Part shown: one piece after another, positions 872 through 35,079 of the stretch
How positions within the stretch are numbered: the first letter of the stretch is position 1
How the letters are laid out: each line of letters begins with the position of its first letter
Virus genome (UHGV): UHGV-0120889
Reading direction: 5' to 3' (one strand)
From: a virus
DNA: 64,000 nt
Translations under genes and position numbers: made by a program
The notes under the pieces: model-generated
The model's database searches: none
What the model saw: the letters and a program-made list of their open reading frames with translations, nothing else
What the model was told of the DNA's origin: nothing

Positions 872-1879
872 TTATTCACTTTTCAGAGTTACTTTAACAA
901 CCAGCTCTGGACGGGTGTTAACTGCCAGCATAGAAGTTTCAGATTCAATCTTCTCTTCACGCAGGTATGCAGAGTGTTTATACCACATGTACAGTTCCTG
1001 TGCTGGAGTGTTTGCTTCGTTAACATCGTCTGCCGGAGCAAAGTGCAGCTGGAACATCTGATCAATACCCATCGGCAGAATGCGAGCTTCTTTCTTAGGA
1101 ATATTGCCAGAGATATCTTCGATAAAGGTGATACCTTTATGCTCAAACACACGGTATACGCTGTCTTGACCGCCAGCACCCAGACGGCGACGCAAAGGTT
1201 CCTGAGCAGAGCCGTAATAGGTGTATGCCAGTTCTACCAGCGGGTGATGAGTAACAGCACTGAAGAACTCCGGTGAGCACAGGGCTACAATGCGATAGCC
1301 AGCTGCGTTATCACCAGCTTGCAGTGCGATGTGCAGACGAGCTTCTTCCAGAACCTCCATAGGATCCTGATCTGCTTTTGCAGGGTCGATCTCAACAGAC
1401 TTCTGAGACACACCCCACAGAGTGTAGTAATCATACTGGCAGGTAGCGTCACCAGGTGCATAGGATTTACCCAGAATAGCCTGGAACAGCGCTTTCTCAC
1501 GCAGTGCTTCATGGGAAACACGGATACGGCGAACAACGCGGGTCACTACGTCCTGAACAGTTTTCGGAGCATCAGGGGTGAAGTAACGACGGAAGTTCTG
1601 GACATCTGCAGCAGTGATGCCTTTATCCAGAGGGAAGAACGGGATGTTCAGGTTTTTAACCTGAGCACGTTCATTACCAACGTAGTTACGCTCACCACCA
1701 CGACGGCGTGCTGGAATGTCGGTTACAACTTCATCAACACGCTCAATCTGAGCAATTGTTGAGGTGCCGAGACGAGTTTCGAACAGATCCATACCGGTAA
1801 TCAGGCGAAATTGACGCGGAACAAGGTCCAGAGTAGCACCTAAATCGACAATGCCAAATTCATCTTTACGAGTAATCAT
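872..1879 (-). CDS. major capsid protein (lambda gpE-like family)
   Basis: 335 aa ORF in head module between decoration-like gene and next structural gene; size and overall sequence character recall lambda E-type major capsid proteins; RBS-spaced ATG. Confidence 0.65.
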   Translation of the reverse strand: MITRKDEFGIVDLGATLDLVPRQFRLITGMDLFETRLGTSTIAQIERVDEVVTDIPARRRGGERNYVGNERAQVKNLNIPFFPLDKGITAADVQNFRRYFTPDAPKTVQDVVTRVVRRIRVSHEALREKALFQAILGKSYAPGDATCQYDYYTLWGVSQKSVEIDPAKADQDPMEVLEEARLHIALQAGDNAAGYRIVALCSPEFFSAVTHHPLVELAYTYYGSAQEPLRRRLGAGGQDSVYRVFEHKGITFIEDISGNIPKKEARILPMGIDQMFQLHFAPADDVNEANTPAQELYMWYKHSAYLREEKIESETSMLAVNTRPELVVKVTLKSE

Positions 1880-5359: not shown

Positions 5360-5461
5360 AAGCTTTACCCCTCAAAACAGTATAACAAAATAGCCCTCGT
5401 GTTAGAGGGCTAGTATCTCCGATTACTCTATTCTACCACATCTAATTAAGATTGGCAACAC

Positions 5462-6583
5462 TTAGATAAAACGCTTGAACATAGAAGGTGATGAGATTGA
5501 TGGAATCACACAAGGAAGTGCTACTTCCTCTTTCTCCAGGAAATTAATAGCAGAAGCTACACAGTCAGCCCAGTCGTCTTTTCTGTTAAATGTTGATCTT
5601 TCCCCGTTGAATTTTTCAAGTTCAGTCAGAAATGCTTCCAGAGTATCAGGATGGAAACTGGATTTTACAATCCTCACCATTCCTTGTTGGGCAAGATTGG
5701 CAAAAGGTGAGAACCTTGTCAGTTTAGATTTGTTGGAAGGCATTGGGTCTTCTTCAACCCTAAACCCTTCGGCAAGCAAGGATCTGGAGGAGGTTAAGAA
5801 CTCACTCTTACCTGCCTGACCGGGGTCCACAGAGAATACGATTATACAATCATCACCATCAAACTGCGCCTGTTTCCTGATGATCACATCTCGTTCACCA
5901 GCCTTTTTACAGAACTTGCCTTCTAGACCTGTGGAATACCTCCCGTCATCCACGTTCTCAGGACAATAATCACCGGACAGGTAATAAAAGCCGTCGCTAT
6001 CTTTACTTACCTTAACACTGGCGGTAAAGTCAGGAAATTTATTACCGGAAGTTCTCTCGGTTCCTGCCTTATCCCATGCCCTGCAAGATACTGATCCAAG
6101 GGGTACTCTATCGGCATCACGAAGGAAAGATCTTTGAAAATAGTTTGCGCCCTCAGGCTTTGCAAACCAGTTACCATGAAGAAGCTGAGCTTTTTCCAGT
6201 TCCGGCAGACCTTCAAGGAAAGCAAGGTATTCTGGGTTGTCTCTTAAGCAAACAGGATTATCGAATATTGTTGCGCCTATAAACGAGAATGACAACGGTC
6301 TTGGCTTGATCTCCACACCAAGTCCGTTAACCGTGGTGTATTTCTCTATCAACTCTTCTTTAGAGTCCCCCCAGATAAATTCACCGTCGCGTCGGATAAA
6401 ATATCTTTTCTTACCGCATTTCTCCGGATCTGGATACCCTTCATCGTCCAACCACCACCTAACCAGTTTGGCAAGCATGTGTTCTGAATCGGGGTTACAG
6501 CTGATAACCATTCTTGATGGATACTTTGACTGAGATCGCAGACGAGACATCAGATAGTCTATCTGCTCCCATTCGAATTGTGT
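5462..6583 (-). CDS. terminase large subunit, exon 2 (C-terminal part of ATPase plus nuclease domain)
   Basis: Frame is open from 6583 (after in-frame TAA); begins TQFEWEQIDYLMSRLRSQ...MVISCNPDS, the expected continuation after Walker B. Exon start is placed at the proposed 3' splice site. Confidence 0.7.
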   Translation of the reverse strand, partial: TQFEWEQIDYLMSRLRSQSKYPSRMVISCNPDSEHMLAKLVRWWLDDEGYPDPEKCGKKRYFIRRDGEFIWGDSKEELIEKYTTVNGLGVEIKPRPLSFSFIGATIFDNPVCLRDNPEYLAFLEGLPELEKAQLLHGNWFAKPEGANYFQRSFLRDADRVPLGSVSCRAWDKAGTERTSGNKFPDFTASVKVSKDSDGFYYLSGDYCPENVDDGRYSTGLEGKFCKKAGERDVIIRKQAQFDGDDCIIVFSVDPGQAGKSEFLTSSRSLLAEGFRVEEDPMPSNKSKLTRFSPFANLAQQGMVRIVKSSFHPDTLEAFLTELEKFNGERSTFNRKDDWADCVASAINFLEKEEVALPCVIPSISSPSMFKRFI

Positions 6584-6899
6584 CGTTTATGTTCGGGCAA
6601 GGTCGCTAGTCTTGCCCCGCCATTTTCAGGCAGCTGCATGTCTCCATGCAGACCAGACTATATCTTATAAGCGACAACAACCGCTTATCCTCCCGTTTCG
6701 AATCGCTTGATTCTACGTCTTTCGACTAGTCGTTGAACGTTCATCCTCTCGGATGCTTCGCTGCGGATTATCTAAATTAACACACTGTTACCATACCTTC
6801 GATCTCTCTTCGAAGCCTCTATCATGTTACCATGACAGGTTGGTGGTATTAATAGTAAAGATTTCCCCGCAATTAGGGAGGTTTTACGAGAGCTACAAA
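6584..6899 (-). ncRNA. group I self-splicing intron (ORF-less) in terminase large subunit gene
   Basis: Minus-strand hallmarks in canonical order: exon ends GAGGGU then UAA; internal guide GCUCUC (plus 6888-6893) pairs with exon end; P-like AAUUGCGGGGAAA (plus 6863-6875); R-like GUUCAACGACUA (plus 6723-6738); S-like AAGAUAUAGUC (plus 6656-6666); terminal G at 6584. Confidence 0.7.
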
Positions 6900-6902
6900 T
6901 TA

Positions 6903-7328
6903 ACCCTCATCGAAGCAAACCATGGTGTACTCAAGCCCTTGATGGTTAAGCTTATCTTGTACATACTCCATGTGGCAGTATTTTACAACAGCTCCCTTTT
7001 TGCTTCTATCCCACTTGCCAGTGTTCGGATCAAACCGTGGAAAAATGAACTTATGATCCTTCTCTCTGAACTTTGGCTTAATGTTTTCAGGCAGATCACT
7101 ATAAATAGCTACCGCTTTAGGCCATAGTCCACCCTCACCTTCCAACTGCGGGGTTGTTCTTCGGAACATAACCACAGAGCTGTGGGGGTCATCAATAATT
7201 TTAAGTGGCATCAATTGCAAGAGGAACGACTTGCCAGACCCTGCGGCACCGCCGATTACCAAAATATCTGCATCGTTTTCGAGGATCATCTTCTGCTTTT
7301 CAGAACACGGTCCGTAAATCTTAGACAT
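6903..7328 (-). CDS. terminase large subunit, exon 1 (N-terminal ATPase: Walker A and B)
   Basis: Walker A VIGGAAGSGKSF and Walker B MVCFDEG; frame hits TAA (6900-6902) immediately after the Gly codon, which is the first codon of the intron. Confidence 0.75.
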
Positions 7329-7615
7329 TAACCGCTCTCCTTTGGAAACAGTGTTCTAATATAGTCTTGCAAAATGATCAATTTAGCTCTATCATTGCTA
7401 CAAGACAGATTATTATCCCTCATAATGCCAGAATTCACTGCATCTGGCGCACCTTTCTTCAAAGGCATAGCTTTAGCAGGTGGTTTCATGGCACCTTCCG
7501 GGGGTTTAACAATCAACCTTCCTACATCCGGAGGGTCAATCTTGTATTCTCTCTCAACGTTGGTTGCACACCCACATAATAACAAGCACACAATAAACAG
7601 TGTAGCAACTCTCAT
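7328..7615 (-). CDS. o-spanin-like outer-membrane lipoprotein (Rz1-like)
   Basis: N-terminal signal with LLLCGC lipobox-like motif, Pro-rich mature region; start overlaps stop of upstream TM/coiled-coil gene (ATGA). Confidence 0.5.
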   Translation of the reverse strand: MRVATLFIVCLLLCGCATNVEREYKIDPPDVGRLIVKPPEGAMKPPAKAMPLKKGAPDAVNSGIMRDNNLSCSNDRAKLIILQDYIRTLFPKESG

Positions 7616-8431: not shown

Positions 8432-8508
8432 TGGTCTCCACGGAGTGATTCGAACACTCGACCTCCTGATCCCAAATCAGGCGCTCTACCAAGCTGAGCT
8501 ACGCGGAG
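8432..8508 (-). tRNA. tRNA-Pro (anticodon UGG)
   Basis: Hand-folded cloverleaf: acceptor CUCCGCG/CGUGGAG, D-arm GCUC..GAGC, anticodon stem CCUGA/UCAGG with loop UUUGGGA, T-arm GAGUG-UUCGAAU-CACUC, encoded CCA. Confidence 0.8.
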
Positions 8509-8519
8509 TATTTATTATT

Positions 8520-8594
8520 TGGTGGCCCTGGGTGGAATTGAACCACCGTCTGGCGATTATGAGTCGCTTGCTTGAACCTTCCAGCTACAGGGCC
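8520..8594 (-). tRNA. tRNA with anticodon CAU (Met or lysidine-modified Ile)
   Basis: Acceptor GGCCCUG/CAGGGCC, anticodon loop CUCAUAA, T-arm GGUGG-UUCAAUU-CCACC, encoded CCA; Met versus Ile2 cannot be told from sequence. Confidence 0.7.
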
Positions 8595-8595
8595 A

Positions 8596-8671
8596 TGGTG
8601 CTGATGGCAGGACTTGAACCTGCAACCTATTGATTACAAATCAATTGCACTACCAATTGTGCTACATCAGC
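8596..8671 (-). tRNA. tRNA-Thr (anticodon UGU)
   Basis: Acceptor GCUGAUG/CAUCAGC, D-arm GCAC..GUGC, anticodon stem AUUGA/UCAAU with loop UUUGUAA, T-arm GCAGG-UUCAAGU-CCUGC, encoded CCA. Confidence 0.8.
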
Positions 8672-8679
8672 AAAAAAGG

Positions 8680-8776
8680 TGCTAGGTGATGGAATCGAAC
8701 CACCTATGTATTCAACGACTACCTCGTCTATTTTCAGGATTAAAAATCCTCGCCCTTGCCAAAGGGCTTACCTAGC
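8680..8776 (-). tRNA. atypical long tRNA-like gene (about 97 nt), anticodon uncertain (candidate UUU) or pseudo-tRNA
   Basis: Perfect 7-bp acceptor GCUAGGU/ACCUAGC, D-arm GCCC-UUUGGCAA-GGGC and T-arm GGUGG-UUCGAUU-CCAUC, but about 30 extra nt between a short AGGA/UCCU stem (loop UUUUUAA) and the T-arm; no encoded CCA. Confidence 0.4.
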
Positions 8777-8874
8777 TCAGTATGTTGACCATGTTGCTAG
8801 TCGGCGATGACGACTGTAACATTTGATAATCCGGTTCTGCTTCCGGCTTTCGCTTAATTACAAGGTCAACAATA

Positions 8875-8965
8875 TGGCTGAGGGTAATGGAATCGAACCA
8901 TCATCGAGTCATCCTCAACGGGACGGTTTTCAAGACCGCTTGAGCACCATTGCTCCCTACCCTCA
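8875..8965 (-). tRNA. tRNA-Ser (anticodon UGA), long variable arm
   Basis: Acceptor UGAGGGU/ACCCUCA, anticodon stem GCGGU/ACCGU with loop CUUGAAA, long variable arm, T-loop UUCGAUU, discriminator G plus CCA. Confidence 0.7.
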
Positions 8966-9079
8966 TTTATAAACAATACTGATAATGACACTGATTTTCG
9001 AGCAGTTAGTGACTAGTATAAACGACGATAAATATCAATGCCATTATCTGTATGATTTATGCATTTAAAACTATAAATT

Positions 9080-9166
9080 TGGTGGGGAGTGGTGGAGTCG
9101 AACCACCCGAGTCGTAATGACAATAGATTTACAGTCTACACCGCTACCTCTACGGGATAACTCCCC
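9080..9166 (-). tRNA. tRNA-Tyr (anticodon GUA), long variable arm
   Basis: Acceptor GGGGAGU/ACUCCCC, anticodon stem GUAGA/UCUAU with loop CUGUAAA, T-arm GGUGG-UUCGACU-CCACC, encoded CCA. Confidence 0.75.
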
Positions 9167-9170
9167 AATT

Positions 9171-9245
9171 TGGCACCCCGTACTGGACTCGAACCAGTGT
9201 CAACGGCTTAGAAGGCCGCTGCTTTATCCACTAAGCTAACAGGGC
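9171..9245 (-). tRNA. tRNA-Arg (anticodon UCU)
   Basis: Acceptor GCCCUGU/ACGGGGU (two G.U), anticodon stem GCGGC/GCCGU with loop CUUCUAA, T-arm ACUGG-UUCGAGU-CCAGU, encoded CCA. Confidence 0.75.
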
Positions 9246-32162: not shown

Positions 32163-33019
32163 AAGTTGTAAAACGGGACGGTAGAGAAGAGTTCTATAAC
32201 GGAATTAAGGTGATCAAGGCGGCAGAGTCCGCCTTACTTGAGTCTGGACATACTGAAGAAGAAGCTTACCGGATCGCTTGTGCGGTTAATGAAGTTGTTG
32301 CTAACAATCTGCCAACCGACCAGTGCACGATCTCTGTAAAAAATATCCATATCCTTGTTGAAGATGCTCTTATGGATATGGGTTTAAAATGTGCAGCCAG
32401 AGAATACATCCAGTATAGACAGACAAGAGATAATAACAGAGAGGCAGGTGGAAAACTACTTGCAGATATTAGTGGCTTCTTGGATCGAACTTGTGATGAA
32501 TTTACAAAAGAAAACGCAAATAAGCCCACTAATCATGTACACACTCATCGTGACCTGCTTGCAGGCATCCTTAGCAAACACCTTGCATCAACACAGATCC
32601 TGCCAGACCGTGTTTCAGAAGAGCACAATAAAGGCTTCATCCATGTGCATGATCTTGACTACTTGATCAGTCCGTTAACAAACTGTTGTTTGGTAAATTA
32701 TCCAGATATGTTGGAAAACGGATTCAACATTGGCAACGCCCATGTCAGTAAGCCGAAGTCAATAGGGGTTGCAACAACAATCCTTAGTCAAATCTCTAGC
32801 GCGGTAGCTAGTGCTCAATATGGTGGTCAGACTATGAGCCATATTGATCATTATCTGGCACAGTATGCTGAAGCAACCTATGAGAAGAACCTTAAATTTT
32901 GCCAGGAACATTGGTTGCCGGATGCTGAAACTGTTGCAATGCAAATGACAGATAAAGATGTATTTGACAGCATGCAGACTTTGCTCTATCAAATCAATAC
33001 GTTAACCTCTGTCAACGGT
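32159..33019 (+). CDS. nrdD: anaerobic ribonucleotide reductase NrdD, exon 1
   Basis: Ends ...YQINTLTSVNG matching NrdD (E. coli EYEVNTLHTANG as recalled); frame hits TAA at 33020-33022, the first intron codon. Confidence 0.8.
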
Positions 33020-33173
33020 TAACAAACTGGCCGTTGTAAAACTCTCCTAACCTCATAAGAGGGGTCGGTAAATCCGGCTAACGGGGAACGCTAAGGCGAA
33101 AGCTATGCCAATCCCGTGACTAGTTCTTACAGGAGTTGGAACGGTTGTAACGACTAACGAAAGGCAGAGATGC

Positions 33174-33202
33174 TTGACAAACATTTCTGAACCAAGTAGT
33201 GT
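33174..33202 (+). promoter_or_regulatory. sigma70-like promoter inside nrdD intron, upstream of HNH ORF (TTGACA-N17-TAGTGT)
   Basis: TTGACA at 33174-33179, TAGTGT at 33197-33202. Confidence 0.4.
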
Positions 33203-33243
33203 AGGGGTTAGTTGAAATACTAACTTCGAAATGGAGAGGCTCT

Positions 33244-33777
33244 ATGAAAAAGATCATTCTTAATGGTGAAGAATCGAACTATGTGATTGATGAGGTTGGA
33301 AACGTATACGGAAAACGTGGAATGCTACACCCAATATTGTGGGGAGGTTATGGAAAAGGTAACAAGCATGTTAAACGCCGTTATATGTACTCTTTCAACC
33401 ACAAAGGTAAAAAGATTCGAATCCAAACCTCAAGGGTTGTTGCCTTGTATTGTTTGCCAGATGTCCCAGAAGACCCTGAAAACTGGGAAGTGAATCATAA
33501 AGATGGCAATACATTGAATGATCATCCGTCTAACCTAGAGTGGGTTTTGCCGGAAGATAATAAGAGACATGCTTTCCGAACAGGACTTTGTCCAGGTAAG
33601 TGCTATAGGAAAGTGCAGGCATACAAAGGGAAAATCTTGGTGGGTGAATATCCTTCACTCTATGCCTGTGCAAAAGCCTTAAATTTGAACGTAGGTAACG
33701 TTCACAGGGCTATCGAAGGAAATGCCGAAGGTAAGCATCTCACAATAAAGGGTTATTATCTTATTGAAGTAGAGTAA
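33244..33777 (+). CDS. HNH homing endonuclease (intron-encoded)
   Basis: EVNHKDGNTLNDHPSNLEWV is a classic HNH motif; 177 aa inside the intron. Confidence 0.75.
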   Translation: MKKIILNGEESNYVIDEVGNVYGKRGMLHPILWGGYGKGNKHVKRRYMYSFNHKGKKIRIQTSRVVALYCLPDVPEDPENWEVNHKDGNTLNDHPSNLEWVLPEDNKRHAFRTGLCPGKCYRKVQAYKGKILVGEYPSLYACAKALNLNVGNVHRAIEGNAEGKHLTIKGYYLIEVE

Positions 33778-33816
33778 GAGATAGTCTGGCCCTGTGGAAA
33801 CACAGGGAGGAGACAG

Positions 33817-35079
33817 CAGACTCCATTCATCACATTAAGTTTAGGACTAGATACCTCGGTCTTTGGTAGAATGATTACCAAAAACTACTTGAAAGTCCAC
33901 AAAATGGGTCTTGGTGAAGAACGTATCACACCTGTGTTCCCTAAAGTGCTGTTCTTCCTGGAAGAGGGTGTCAACATGAACCCTGGGGATCCTAACTATG
34001 ATTTGAAACGATTAGCTCTGGAATGCTGTGCAGAACGTATCTATCCTGACTTCGTATCTGTACCACTAAATAGAAAAGTGACAGGCTCGACAGATGGCAA
34101 AGTAACTAGCATGGGTTGCAGGAGTTTTCTTAGCAAATACAATGACTTGGAAACAGGCGAGGAGAAATACCTTGGCAGATTTAACTTAGGCGTTGTTAGC
34201 CTTAACCTGCCAATGATTGCGGCAAAAGCTAAAACGGAAGGTGTTGATTTCTTTGCAGTTCTTGACGAATACCTGGATCTTGCATACGAGGCTCACCTTG
34301 TAAGGGTTAATCGTCTAAAAGGGACAAAGGCAGGGCAGAACCCTATCATGTGGTGTGAAGGCGCTCTTGCTCGCCTGGACCCTGAAGAGAGTATTGATAA
34401 ACTCTTCTATGACGGGTACGCTTCCATCAGTATTGGGTATATTGGTGTGTATGAAACCTGTCAGATTTTGGGCAGAGAGGGTGACAAGGCTTTAGCTCTT
34501 GGAATCCTTCAGCACATGAGAGATGCTTGTGAGCGACACAAGAAGGAAAGTAGACTAGCGTTTAGCTTGTACGGCACCCCTTCTGAGAGTCTATGCTATA
34601 AAGCTGCAACCTGTCTGGATCGTGAATATCCTGAAGTGTTGAAGCACGAGCATGAATATCTCACCAACAGTTTCCATCAGCCAGTATGGATCAATAGCTC
34701 TCCTTTTGATAAGTGGGAGTATGAGGAAGGTTTTGCTATGATCTCCTCTGGTGGCAACATCGGATACGTAGAGACACCAAATCTGAAAAACAACTTAGAT
34801 GCTTTGGAAGCTCTTGTTGATTTCGGATATAAACACATTATGTATTTTGGTATTAACCAACCTGTGGATAAATGTCTCAAGTGTGGTTTCTCTGGTGAGT
34901 TCAGTGCAACAGCTAAAGGCTTTGTATGCCCAGAGTGTGGAAACCATGAAGAGGGAACGATCAGTGTAATTCGACGTGTGTCTGGATACCTTTCCAGTCC
35001 TAACTCCCGTCCTTACAATAAAGGTAAGCAAGCGGAAGTTATCGAGCGAGTTAAGCACTACGGAAGTTGTGGTTGCTGA
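33817..35079 (+). CDS. nrdD: anaerobic ribonucleotide reductase NrdD, exon 2
   Basis: Starts QTPFITLSLGLDTSVFGR...ITPVFPKVLFF...GDPNYDLKRLALECC, continuing NrdD; C-terminal glycyl-radical/zinc region; spliced protein about 707 aa. Confidence 0.8.
   Translation, partial: QTPFITLSLGLDTSVFGRMITKNYLKVHKMGLGEERITPVFPKVLFFLEEGVNMNPGDPNYDLKRLALECCAERIYPDFVSVPLNRKVTGSTDGKVTSMGCRSFLSKYNDLETGEEKYLGRFNLGVVSLNLPMIAAKAKTEGVDFFAVLDEYLDLAYEAHLVRVNRLKGTKAGQNPIMWCEGALARLDPEESIDKLFYDGYASISIGYIGVYETCQILGREGDKALALGILQHMRDACERHKKESRLAFSLYGTPSESLCYKAATCLDREYPEVLKHEHEYLTNSFHQPVWINSSPFDKWEYEEGFAMISSGGNIGYVETPNLKNNLDALEALVDFGYKHIMYFGINQPVDKCLKCGFSGEFSATAKGFVCPECGNHEEGTISVIRRVSGYLSSPNSRPYNKGKQAEVIERVKHYGSCGC

Follow-up and report, generated by a model that had tools for sequence, protein, structure and literature searches.

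The large terminase gene (terL) of the phage analysed here stops at an in-frame UAA after 142 codons and resumes on the same strand more than 300 nt downstream, and the question raised by this locus is how a complete terminase could be produced from two separated pieces. The gene lies in a stretch of 64,000 nt from the virus genome UHGV-0120889, referred to below as the window, which is at least 99% identical to Escherichia phage slur16 (Vequintavirus slur16); at the terL locus the identity is 100% to slur16 and slur12, 99.9% to JohannBauhin and 97.5% to rV5. TerL is essential for packaging, and the phage is a viable isolate. Judged from its sequence, the interrupting segment at 6584..6902(-) is almost certainly a td-like, self-splicing group I intron of the IA type, a selfish and mobile element residing in the terL of an rV5-like coliphage.

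The split terL gene and its product

The upstream piece of terL is contained in an ORF at 6900..7328(-), whose 142 aa product has the C-terminus ...LEYTMVCFDEG and which is closed by a TAA at 6902..6900. Its coding part, exon 1 (6903..7328(-), aa 1-142), is supported by the ORF list, the sequence and a Pfam Terminase_6N match, and ends GAG GGU. The frame picks up at 6583(-) with TQFEWEQIDYLMSRLR (TQFEWEQ...) and is open down to the stop at 5462..5464; exon 2 (5462..6583(-), aa 143-515 plus the stop) begins ACA CAA UUC, encoding TQF, and was recognized through Pfam and PHROG. On the minus strand the 5' junction reads ...GAU GAG GGU / UAA UUU GUA GCU CUC GUA AAA CCU CCC UAA UUG CGG GG..., and the 3' junction reads ...CCC GAA CAU AAA CG / ACA CAA UUC GAA UGG GAG CAG....

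Joining 6903 to 6583 in silico directly restores one open reading frame for a 515-aa protein, a complete TerL, and the ligated-exon sequence predicted from this join is ...GAUGAGGGU/ACACAAUUC.... The spliced product matches both Terminase_6N (E=6.2e-20) and Terminase_6C (E=2.6e-6) in Pfam, which places the ATPase and the nuclease in a single polypeptide; residues 1-513 are also covered by a match to PHROG 979 ('terminase large subunit'; E=1.7e-208). Exon 2 supplies 373 of the 515 residues, the nuclease domain among them. Within the ATPase, GAAGSGKS at aa 27-34 (7227..7250(-)) is taken to be Walker A and MVCFDE at aa 136-141 (6906..6923(-)) is presumably Walker B (hhhhDE); SCN at aa 170-172 (6494..6502(-)) is regarded as a candidate C-motif, with the nuclease domain after it. 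The assignments draw on sequence pattern and general knowledge, and those of Walker B and the C-motif are pattern-based because the spliced TerL, searched by sequence against PDB chains, gave chance matches only (E>0.3), hence no alignable solved terminase. The insertion follows G142, one codon past Walker B and 28 codons ahead of the candidate C-motif. Among the matches listed, TerL homologues of Klebsiella, Cronobacter, Rheinheimera, Pseudomonas and FelixO1-like phages are uninterrupted at this position. An antisense ORF at 6753..7127(+), 124 aa in length, lies mostly opposite terL exon 1.

Family match and anatomy of the intron

A cmscan of the 64-kb window matched RF00028 (group I intron) to 6634..6912(-) at 84.3 bits (E=5.5e-20), covering positions 1-253 of the 253-position model; the gathering score of this family is 50 bits, and in the whole-window Rfam scan the terL match was the sole one above threshold besides tRNAs. 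The intron is 319 nt long and ORF-less, its first bases forming the in-frame UAA and its last base being the G at 6584; a window coordinate is obtained as 6903 minus the intron position, and all elements below are on the minus strand. P1 (6888..6908) is formed by the last six exon bases, GAGGGU (-6..-1; 6908..6903), together with intron 1-2, and a GUAGCUCUC-type guide at intron 8-15 (6895..6888), with a U(-1)·G10 wobble at the 5' splice site in both the cmscan alignment and the minimum free energy (MFE) fold. P2 is absent, with 6 nt only between P1 and P3. The P3-enclosed region (6689..6881) holds P3 (intron 22-27 with 209-214), P4 (32-37 with 136-141), P5 (41-44 with 130-133), P6 (142-143 with 165-166), P6a (148-152 with 157-161), the 5' strand of P7 and P7.1/P7.2; P5 bears an 85-nt three-way extension at 45-129.

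The P7 region, spanning P7.1, P7.2, P3' and P8, occupies 6656..6731. P7 itself pairs GACUA at intron 172-176 (6731..6727) with UAGUC at 243-247 (6660..6656), forms a pseudoknot with P3 and is flanked by a conserved J6/7 GUUCAAC and J8/7 AAGAUA. P7.1 (177-186, with a GAAA loop) and P7.2 (190-203) are followed by the P8 hairpin AUAAGCGG-UUGUUG-UCGCUUAU at 215-236 (6667..6688). The P9-P9.2 region (6595..6651) consists of P9 (252-269), P9.1 (272-284) and P9.2 (286-308), and the intron ends in ...AACAUAAACG, its terminal G (omega G) being intron position 319 at 6584. The unconstrained MFE fold of the precursor alone yields P1, P3, P4, P5, P6a, P7.1, P7.2, P8, P9, P9.1 and P9.2; P10 is weak, with at most 3-4 pairs and a one-base offset. 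The cmscan alignment shows the conserved core segments AAUUGCGGGG, AAUCCGCAGC, GUUCAACGACUA and AAGAUAUAGUCU, which we take to be the P/Q/R/S elements, of which the preliminary description named P, R and S. P7.1/P7.2 and P9.1/P9.2 are additions typical of IA-type phage introns (Michel-Westhof subgroups); the terL intron accordingly fits the IA type (td-like) by its predicted structure, and with P2 absent it is placed at the level of IA rather than of IA1, IA2 or IA3.

A search of all six frames of the intron found each closed or too short, with no hidden homing endonuclease pseudogene, and the 319-nt intron of the window thus does not belong to the mobile group I introns that carry a homing endonuclease of their own.

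The structural claims of the preliminary description are all borne out by these results. The MVCFDEG fragment end, the UAA at the 5' splice site and the in-frame resumption are all present in the sequence, and the gene is the large terminase gene by the Terminase_6N/6C and PHROG 979 matches of the spliced product, with the break between Walker B and a later ATPase motif as assigned by pattern. The guide pairing, core elements and terminal G are recovered in the cmscan alignment and MFE fold; the intron strand holds no open frame of useful length, as had been stated, and the RF00028 scan that had been suggested as a check of the group I assignment was run and gave the above-threshold match, to which the covariation described below adds. 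The described likeness to T4 td also holds. The locus had been correctly found but its extent, given as 6584-6899 and 316 nt, needs correction: the intron includes the UAA and is therefore 6584..6902, 319 nt.

Boundaries from intron-less alleles

The boundaries can be read directly from relatives in which the same site is empty. An artificial spliced junction of 600 nt found an uninterrupted match in several Vequintavirus genomes at ~95-98% identity, and four intron-less alleles (JeffSchatz, YN3, nimi and EduardKellenberger) were compared base by base. These alleles (~98% identity) are colinear with exon 1 plus exon 2, from which it follows that the amount removed is 319 nt. The terL of JeffSchatz is one uninterrupted CDS of 1548 nt, corresponding to 515 aa and a stop and equal in length to the spliced product; its first 342 codons were translated and read an identical ...MVCFDEGTQFEWEQ... 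across the junction. YN3, nimi and EduardKellenberger show a matching codon pattern up to the junction and beyond it, with nothing inserted. Colinearity alone would permit a one-base shift (GGG/G...), which leaves the protein unchanged; the register is fixed by the group I rules of a U at -1 and a terminal G.

Conservation of the core across distant introns

The nearest relatives of the intron outside the genus are found in Pseudomonas phiKZ-like phages (e.g. ANB1; 72% identity over intron ~130-316, RF00028 84 bits) and in the nrdE gene of Bacillus phage BSP9 (70% identity over intron ~130-316, RF00028 94 bits). Four introns, including one from a phiKZ-like Pseudomonas phage and the Bacillus phage nrdE intron, were aligned, and 45 named pairs from P6 to P9.2 were scored: 90.4% of cells are paired, compared to 31-38% when the partners are slid by 1-3 columns. 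Double-sided changes occur in 11 pairs, located in P6a, P7.1, P7.2, P9 and P9.2, and 0 of 500 shuffles equal this; the alignment is small and its structure was taken from one member, so the covariation is supporting rather than stand-alone proof. In P7, 5/5 pairs are invariant across the four introns. Neither P8 nor the 5' half of the slur16 intron aligns with the Pseudomonas and Bacillus introns, and the covariation covers P6-P9.2 apart from P8, for which the swapped stem of the endonuclease-bearing form described below is the one change noted.

Three states of the terL site in Vequintavirus

The phage collection was searched with junction-specific 80-nt queries, with records counted and GenBank/RefSeq duplicates included. 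Across ~117 Vequintavirus records the terL site is polymorphic with three states: an uninterrupted junction in 64 records and an exon 1-intron junction in 53, the latter divided into 23 with an ORF-less P8 context and 30 with an ORF-bearing P8 context. The ORF-less introns are 96-100% conserved among the relatives listed; in rV5, JohannBauhin and RudolfGeigy the first terL intron is the same element as in the window, 319 nt at the same insertion site with ~97.5-99.9% nucleotide identity over the locus, and the rV5 and RudolfGeigy copies score 84-85 bits in Rfam, level with the window intron.

The ORF-bearing form, 883 nt in WalterGehring, HdK5, JES2013 and O157 typing phage 4, has the same site and core as the intron of slur16. 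Its P8 carries a 196-aa ORF for an Endonuclease VII-type homing endonuclease (Endonuclease_7, PF02945, E=2e-21), which begins in the P8 5' strand and finishes in J8/7-P7. Outside P8 the two forms are ~98% identical, yet the P8 stem of the 883-nt form (GUGAAUGUGUAA/UUACACAUUCAU) shows no sequence relationship to the hairpin of slur16; since the P8 stems differ completely and the remainder is ~98% identical, the ORF-less intron is not a simple deletion of the ORF form.

The exon bases that flank the site track its state. Among ten alleles read, the junction is GGU/ACA in 6/6 intron-containing alleles and GGC/ACG in 4/4 intron-less alleles, and the differences at -1 (6903; U/C) and +3 (6581; A/G) are both synonymous. 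The P1 U·G wobble needs the U(-1) that the intron alleles keep; the pattern may reflect flanking exon bases having been co-converted in the course of homing or, alternatively, selection for splice competence.

A second terL intron site is located in exon 2 between 6266 and 6267 (-), 317 nt downstream of the 3' splice site of the first intron, and by pairwise BLAST it is empty in the window. It is occupied in rV5 and HdK5 by a 979-nt intron, with an HNH_3 ORF in rV5, and in RudolfGeigy by an ORF-less intron of 268 nt scoring 95.6 bits in Rfam.

Approximately 18 'Campylobacter phage' records (MG0656xx; A135, C2, C15, A12a, D1 and others) are 97-100% identical to E. coli Vequintaviruses at terL and nrdD. 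These 'Campylobacter jejuni' phage records show the same intron polymorphism, and the host assigned to them seems questionable.

A second group I intron and a tRNA cluster in the window

The anaerobic ribonucleotide reductase gene (nrdD) of the window is interrupted by a second group I intron of 797 nt at 33020..33816(+). Position 33019 closes exon 1 with GGU, UAA opens the intron and CAG opens exon 2 at 33817; the spliced NrdD is 707 aa. An ORF at 33244..33777(+) within the intron encodes a 177-aa HNH_3 endonuclease and ends in J8/7; in some relatives it is annotated as a homing endonuclease inside the gene for NTP reductase. JeffSchatz nrdD is intron-less and exactly colinear (804 = 320+484 nt). 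At the junction the window has GGU/CAG (33019, 33819), compared to GGG/CAA in one intron-less allele, that of JeffSchatz; U at -1 thus recurs with this intron, as would fit the U·G pair that P1 requires and co-conversion of the exon. The RF00028 score of the nrdD intron, 28.7 bits, is below the gathering score of 50, so that Rfam at the gathering threshold detects the terL intron and misses the endonuclease-bearing nrdD intron of the same window. The nrdD intron region (32700..34300) is 99.1% identical to slur16, compared to 100% at terL (5400..7400), with a coordinate offset of 8 bases between these loci, so that the window would stem from a very close relative of slur16 or another assembly and need not be the deposited slur16 sequence.

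A cluster of seven tRNAs (8432..9245(-); Pro, Met, Thr, one without assignment, Ser, Tyr and Arg) separates the lysis/terminase block from the genes that follow. The tRNA-like gene at 8678..8776(-) is 99 nt long, is given a 4-base anticodon (atcc) by ARAGORN and scores 35.5 bits as a tRNA in Rfam; it has the anticodon loop UUUUUAA and a 26-nt variable-arm insert, and carries the RefSeq label tRNA-???.

Proposed splicing pathway and alternative explanations

In the proposed pathway, the last six bases of exon 1 would pair with the internal guide sequence to form P1, the U·G pair marking the splice site; P7 would bind an external guanosine, which would then attack after U6903. The freed 3'-OH of exon 1 is predicted to attack after the terminal G6584, joining GGU to ACA, and ligation would give a single mRNA for the 515-aa TerL. 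Ribosomes on unspliced RNA would be expected to halt at the first three bases of the intron, UAA, and release the 142-aa fragment. The element has presumably spread as a selfish mobile intron: the copy here is without its own endonuclease gene, sister phages have the intron with an Endonuclease VII-type gene in P8, and others are intron-less. The weak P10, the absence of P2 (unlike td) and the two terminase CDSs of the slur16 record are counterpoints to this pathway.

The preliminary description had further proposed that packaging depends on splicing, which could couple terminase production to RNA folding conditions. The first part is upheld as a matter of logic, because 373 of the 515 residues, the nuclease domain included, are encoded in exon 2; the second is unsupported, since 64 near-identical records are without the intron and those read have the same junction protein, which makes the intron dispensable. 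A related explanation is that the intron, while functional, has been co-opted for a further role, either as a regulatory checkpoint by which terminase production is timed to RNA folding or translation conditions, or as protection of the homing site from the Endonuclease VII-type nuclease that co-infecting relatives encode; it is considered unlikely. Full-length TerL would not be made without splicing, the intron interrupts a site that is continuous in intron-less alleles while the nuclease is encoded right there in 30 related records, and the ORF-less form is fairly common (23 records). A regulatory need is nevertheless not evident from the 64 intron-less records, the sequence holds no pointer to any sensor, and site protection would be a passive result of any intron insertion; the literature search found no experiment on site protection or regulation. 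The more specific proposal, that the ORF-less intron is kept to shield terL from the endonuclease of co-infecting Vequintaviruses or to set the timing or level of terminase, with the tight association of the synonymous -1 and +3 exon bases with intron presence reflecting an ongoing arms race at the site, is likewise an outside chance.

It could also be hypothesized that no RNA splicing takes place and that the terminase is assembled from two polypeptides translated separately, an N-terminal ATPase fragment and a C-terminal one, as with nrdA of Aeromonas phage Aeh1, which is split by mobE. The slur16 RefSeq record lists two terminase CDSs, non-spliced split genes are known in phages (summarised in PMC7344957), and an in-frame ATG occurs 11 codons into exon 2 (6550) with a GGAG ~15 nt upstream. 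This GGAG belongs to the conserved W-E-Q codons, and its spacing is poor for ribosome binding; the break comes one codon past Walker B and within the ATPase fold. What lies between the exons is a high-scoring, complete group I ribozyme that shows covariation, and a mere spacer needs no such conservation; U at -1 is retained in intron alleles, as P1 demands. An independent downstream start at the break and a ribozyme-free spacer, the marks of the Aeh1 nrdA/mobE arrangement, were both absent from this locus, and two unspliced polypeptides are thus very improbable here.

It is extremely improbable that the intron is a relic in decay, with impaired splicing, and that terL is turning into a pseudogene: the missing homing endonuclease gene, weak P10 and absent P2 could be read in this way, but the core is intact and scores 84-85 bits like the rV5 and RudolfGeigy copies, the ORF-less form is 96-100% conserved among the relatives listed and present in 23 records, and the carrier phages are propagated isolates requiring TerL. 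An intein, a group II intron and translational bypass were rejected, RF00028 alone having matched the region at any threshold. Ordinary self-splicing of a selfish group I intron is the best explanation of the interrupted terL.

Annotation and comparison with known systems

The terL intron is already known, having been published for rV5 in 2013 and annotated as a join in rV5 and JohannBauhin; the finding is correct but ordinary, and leaves the knowledge of terminases and of group I introns unchanged. In the rV5 genome paper (Kropinski et al. 2013; PMC3606486) one section is headed 'Introns in terminase', and D. Shub is acknowledged for helping to define where the intron lies. In the rV5 record, NC_011041, terL ('ORF64ABC') is joined from three pieces, and the second of the intervening sequences holds an HNH endonuclease gene; the BASEL records give a two-piece join for JohannBauhin and a three-piece join for RudolfGeigy; in the BASEL collection paper, intron boundaries were placed through comparative genomics (PMC8594841). 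The genome announcement of LL12 reports predicted introns that disrupt terL and the DNA polymerase gene (PMC6658697). In the slur16 (NC_028248 / LN881727) and slur12 records, terL is presented as two terminase CDSs with the join missing; the second CDS of slur16 begins at an internal Met, at locus position 1423 compared to a true exon 2 start at ~1318, which leaves 35 exon 2 codons unannotated. The practical value of the result is therefore one of annotation, as the paired 'terminase large subunit' CDSs of slur16 and slur12 are one spliced gene. The three-state polymorphism (empty, ORF-less and endonuclease-bearing) in near-identical phages would also be a convenient system in which to study homing and exon co-conversion.

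The literature search returned no experimental splicing data for the terL intron of slur16, rV5 or Vequintavirus, the published calls being computational. Splicing of a terL intron has been demonstrated by RT-PCR in the Pectobacterium phage CB7 (Certrevirus; PMC7344957); CB7 belongs to the same subfamily as the window phage and likewise has a group I-type intron in terL, although the CB7 intron carries an HNH gene. The terL of Lactobacillus phage LL-H is also intron-interrupted (Mikkonen & Alatossava 1995, as cited in PMC3606486), and as in the window phage the element in this large terminase gene is a group I-type intron.

The phiKZ-like ANB1 and BSP9 nrdE introns share the P6-P9.2 architecture with the terL intron but differ in host gene, the BSP9 intron lying in ribonucleotide reductase alpha and that of ANB1 in an unannotated split gene. 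The ANB1 intron (1423..1706 of the compared segment) is itself unannotated and is flanked by two 'hypothetical protein' CDSs in this phiKZ-like jumbo phage; the flanking peptide ...GNRADLIIFGGSTMRRSN... may resemble an RNA polymerase beta-type motif. The T4-type td intron shares the GGGU/UAA 5' junction with the terL intron, with an immediate in-frame stop in both; from J8/7 through P7 and P9 to P9.2 the two share 82% identity across 79 nt of the 3' core, and both 3' tails read GAACAUAA(x)G. The td intron sits in the thymidylate synthase gene and, by the RB7 annotation, carries the I-TevI ORF upstream of the common 3' core. It also has P2, whereas the terL intron is without P2 and instead has a long P5 extension.
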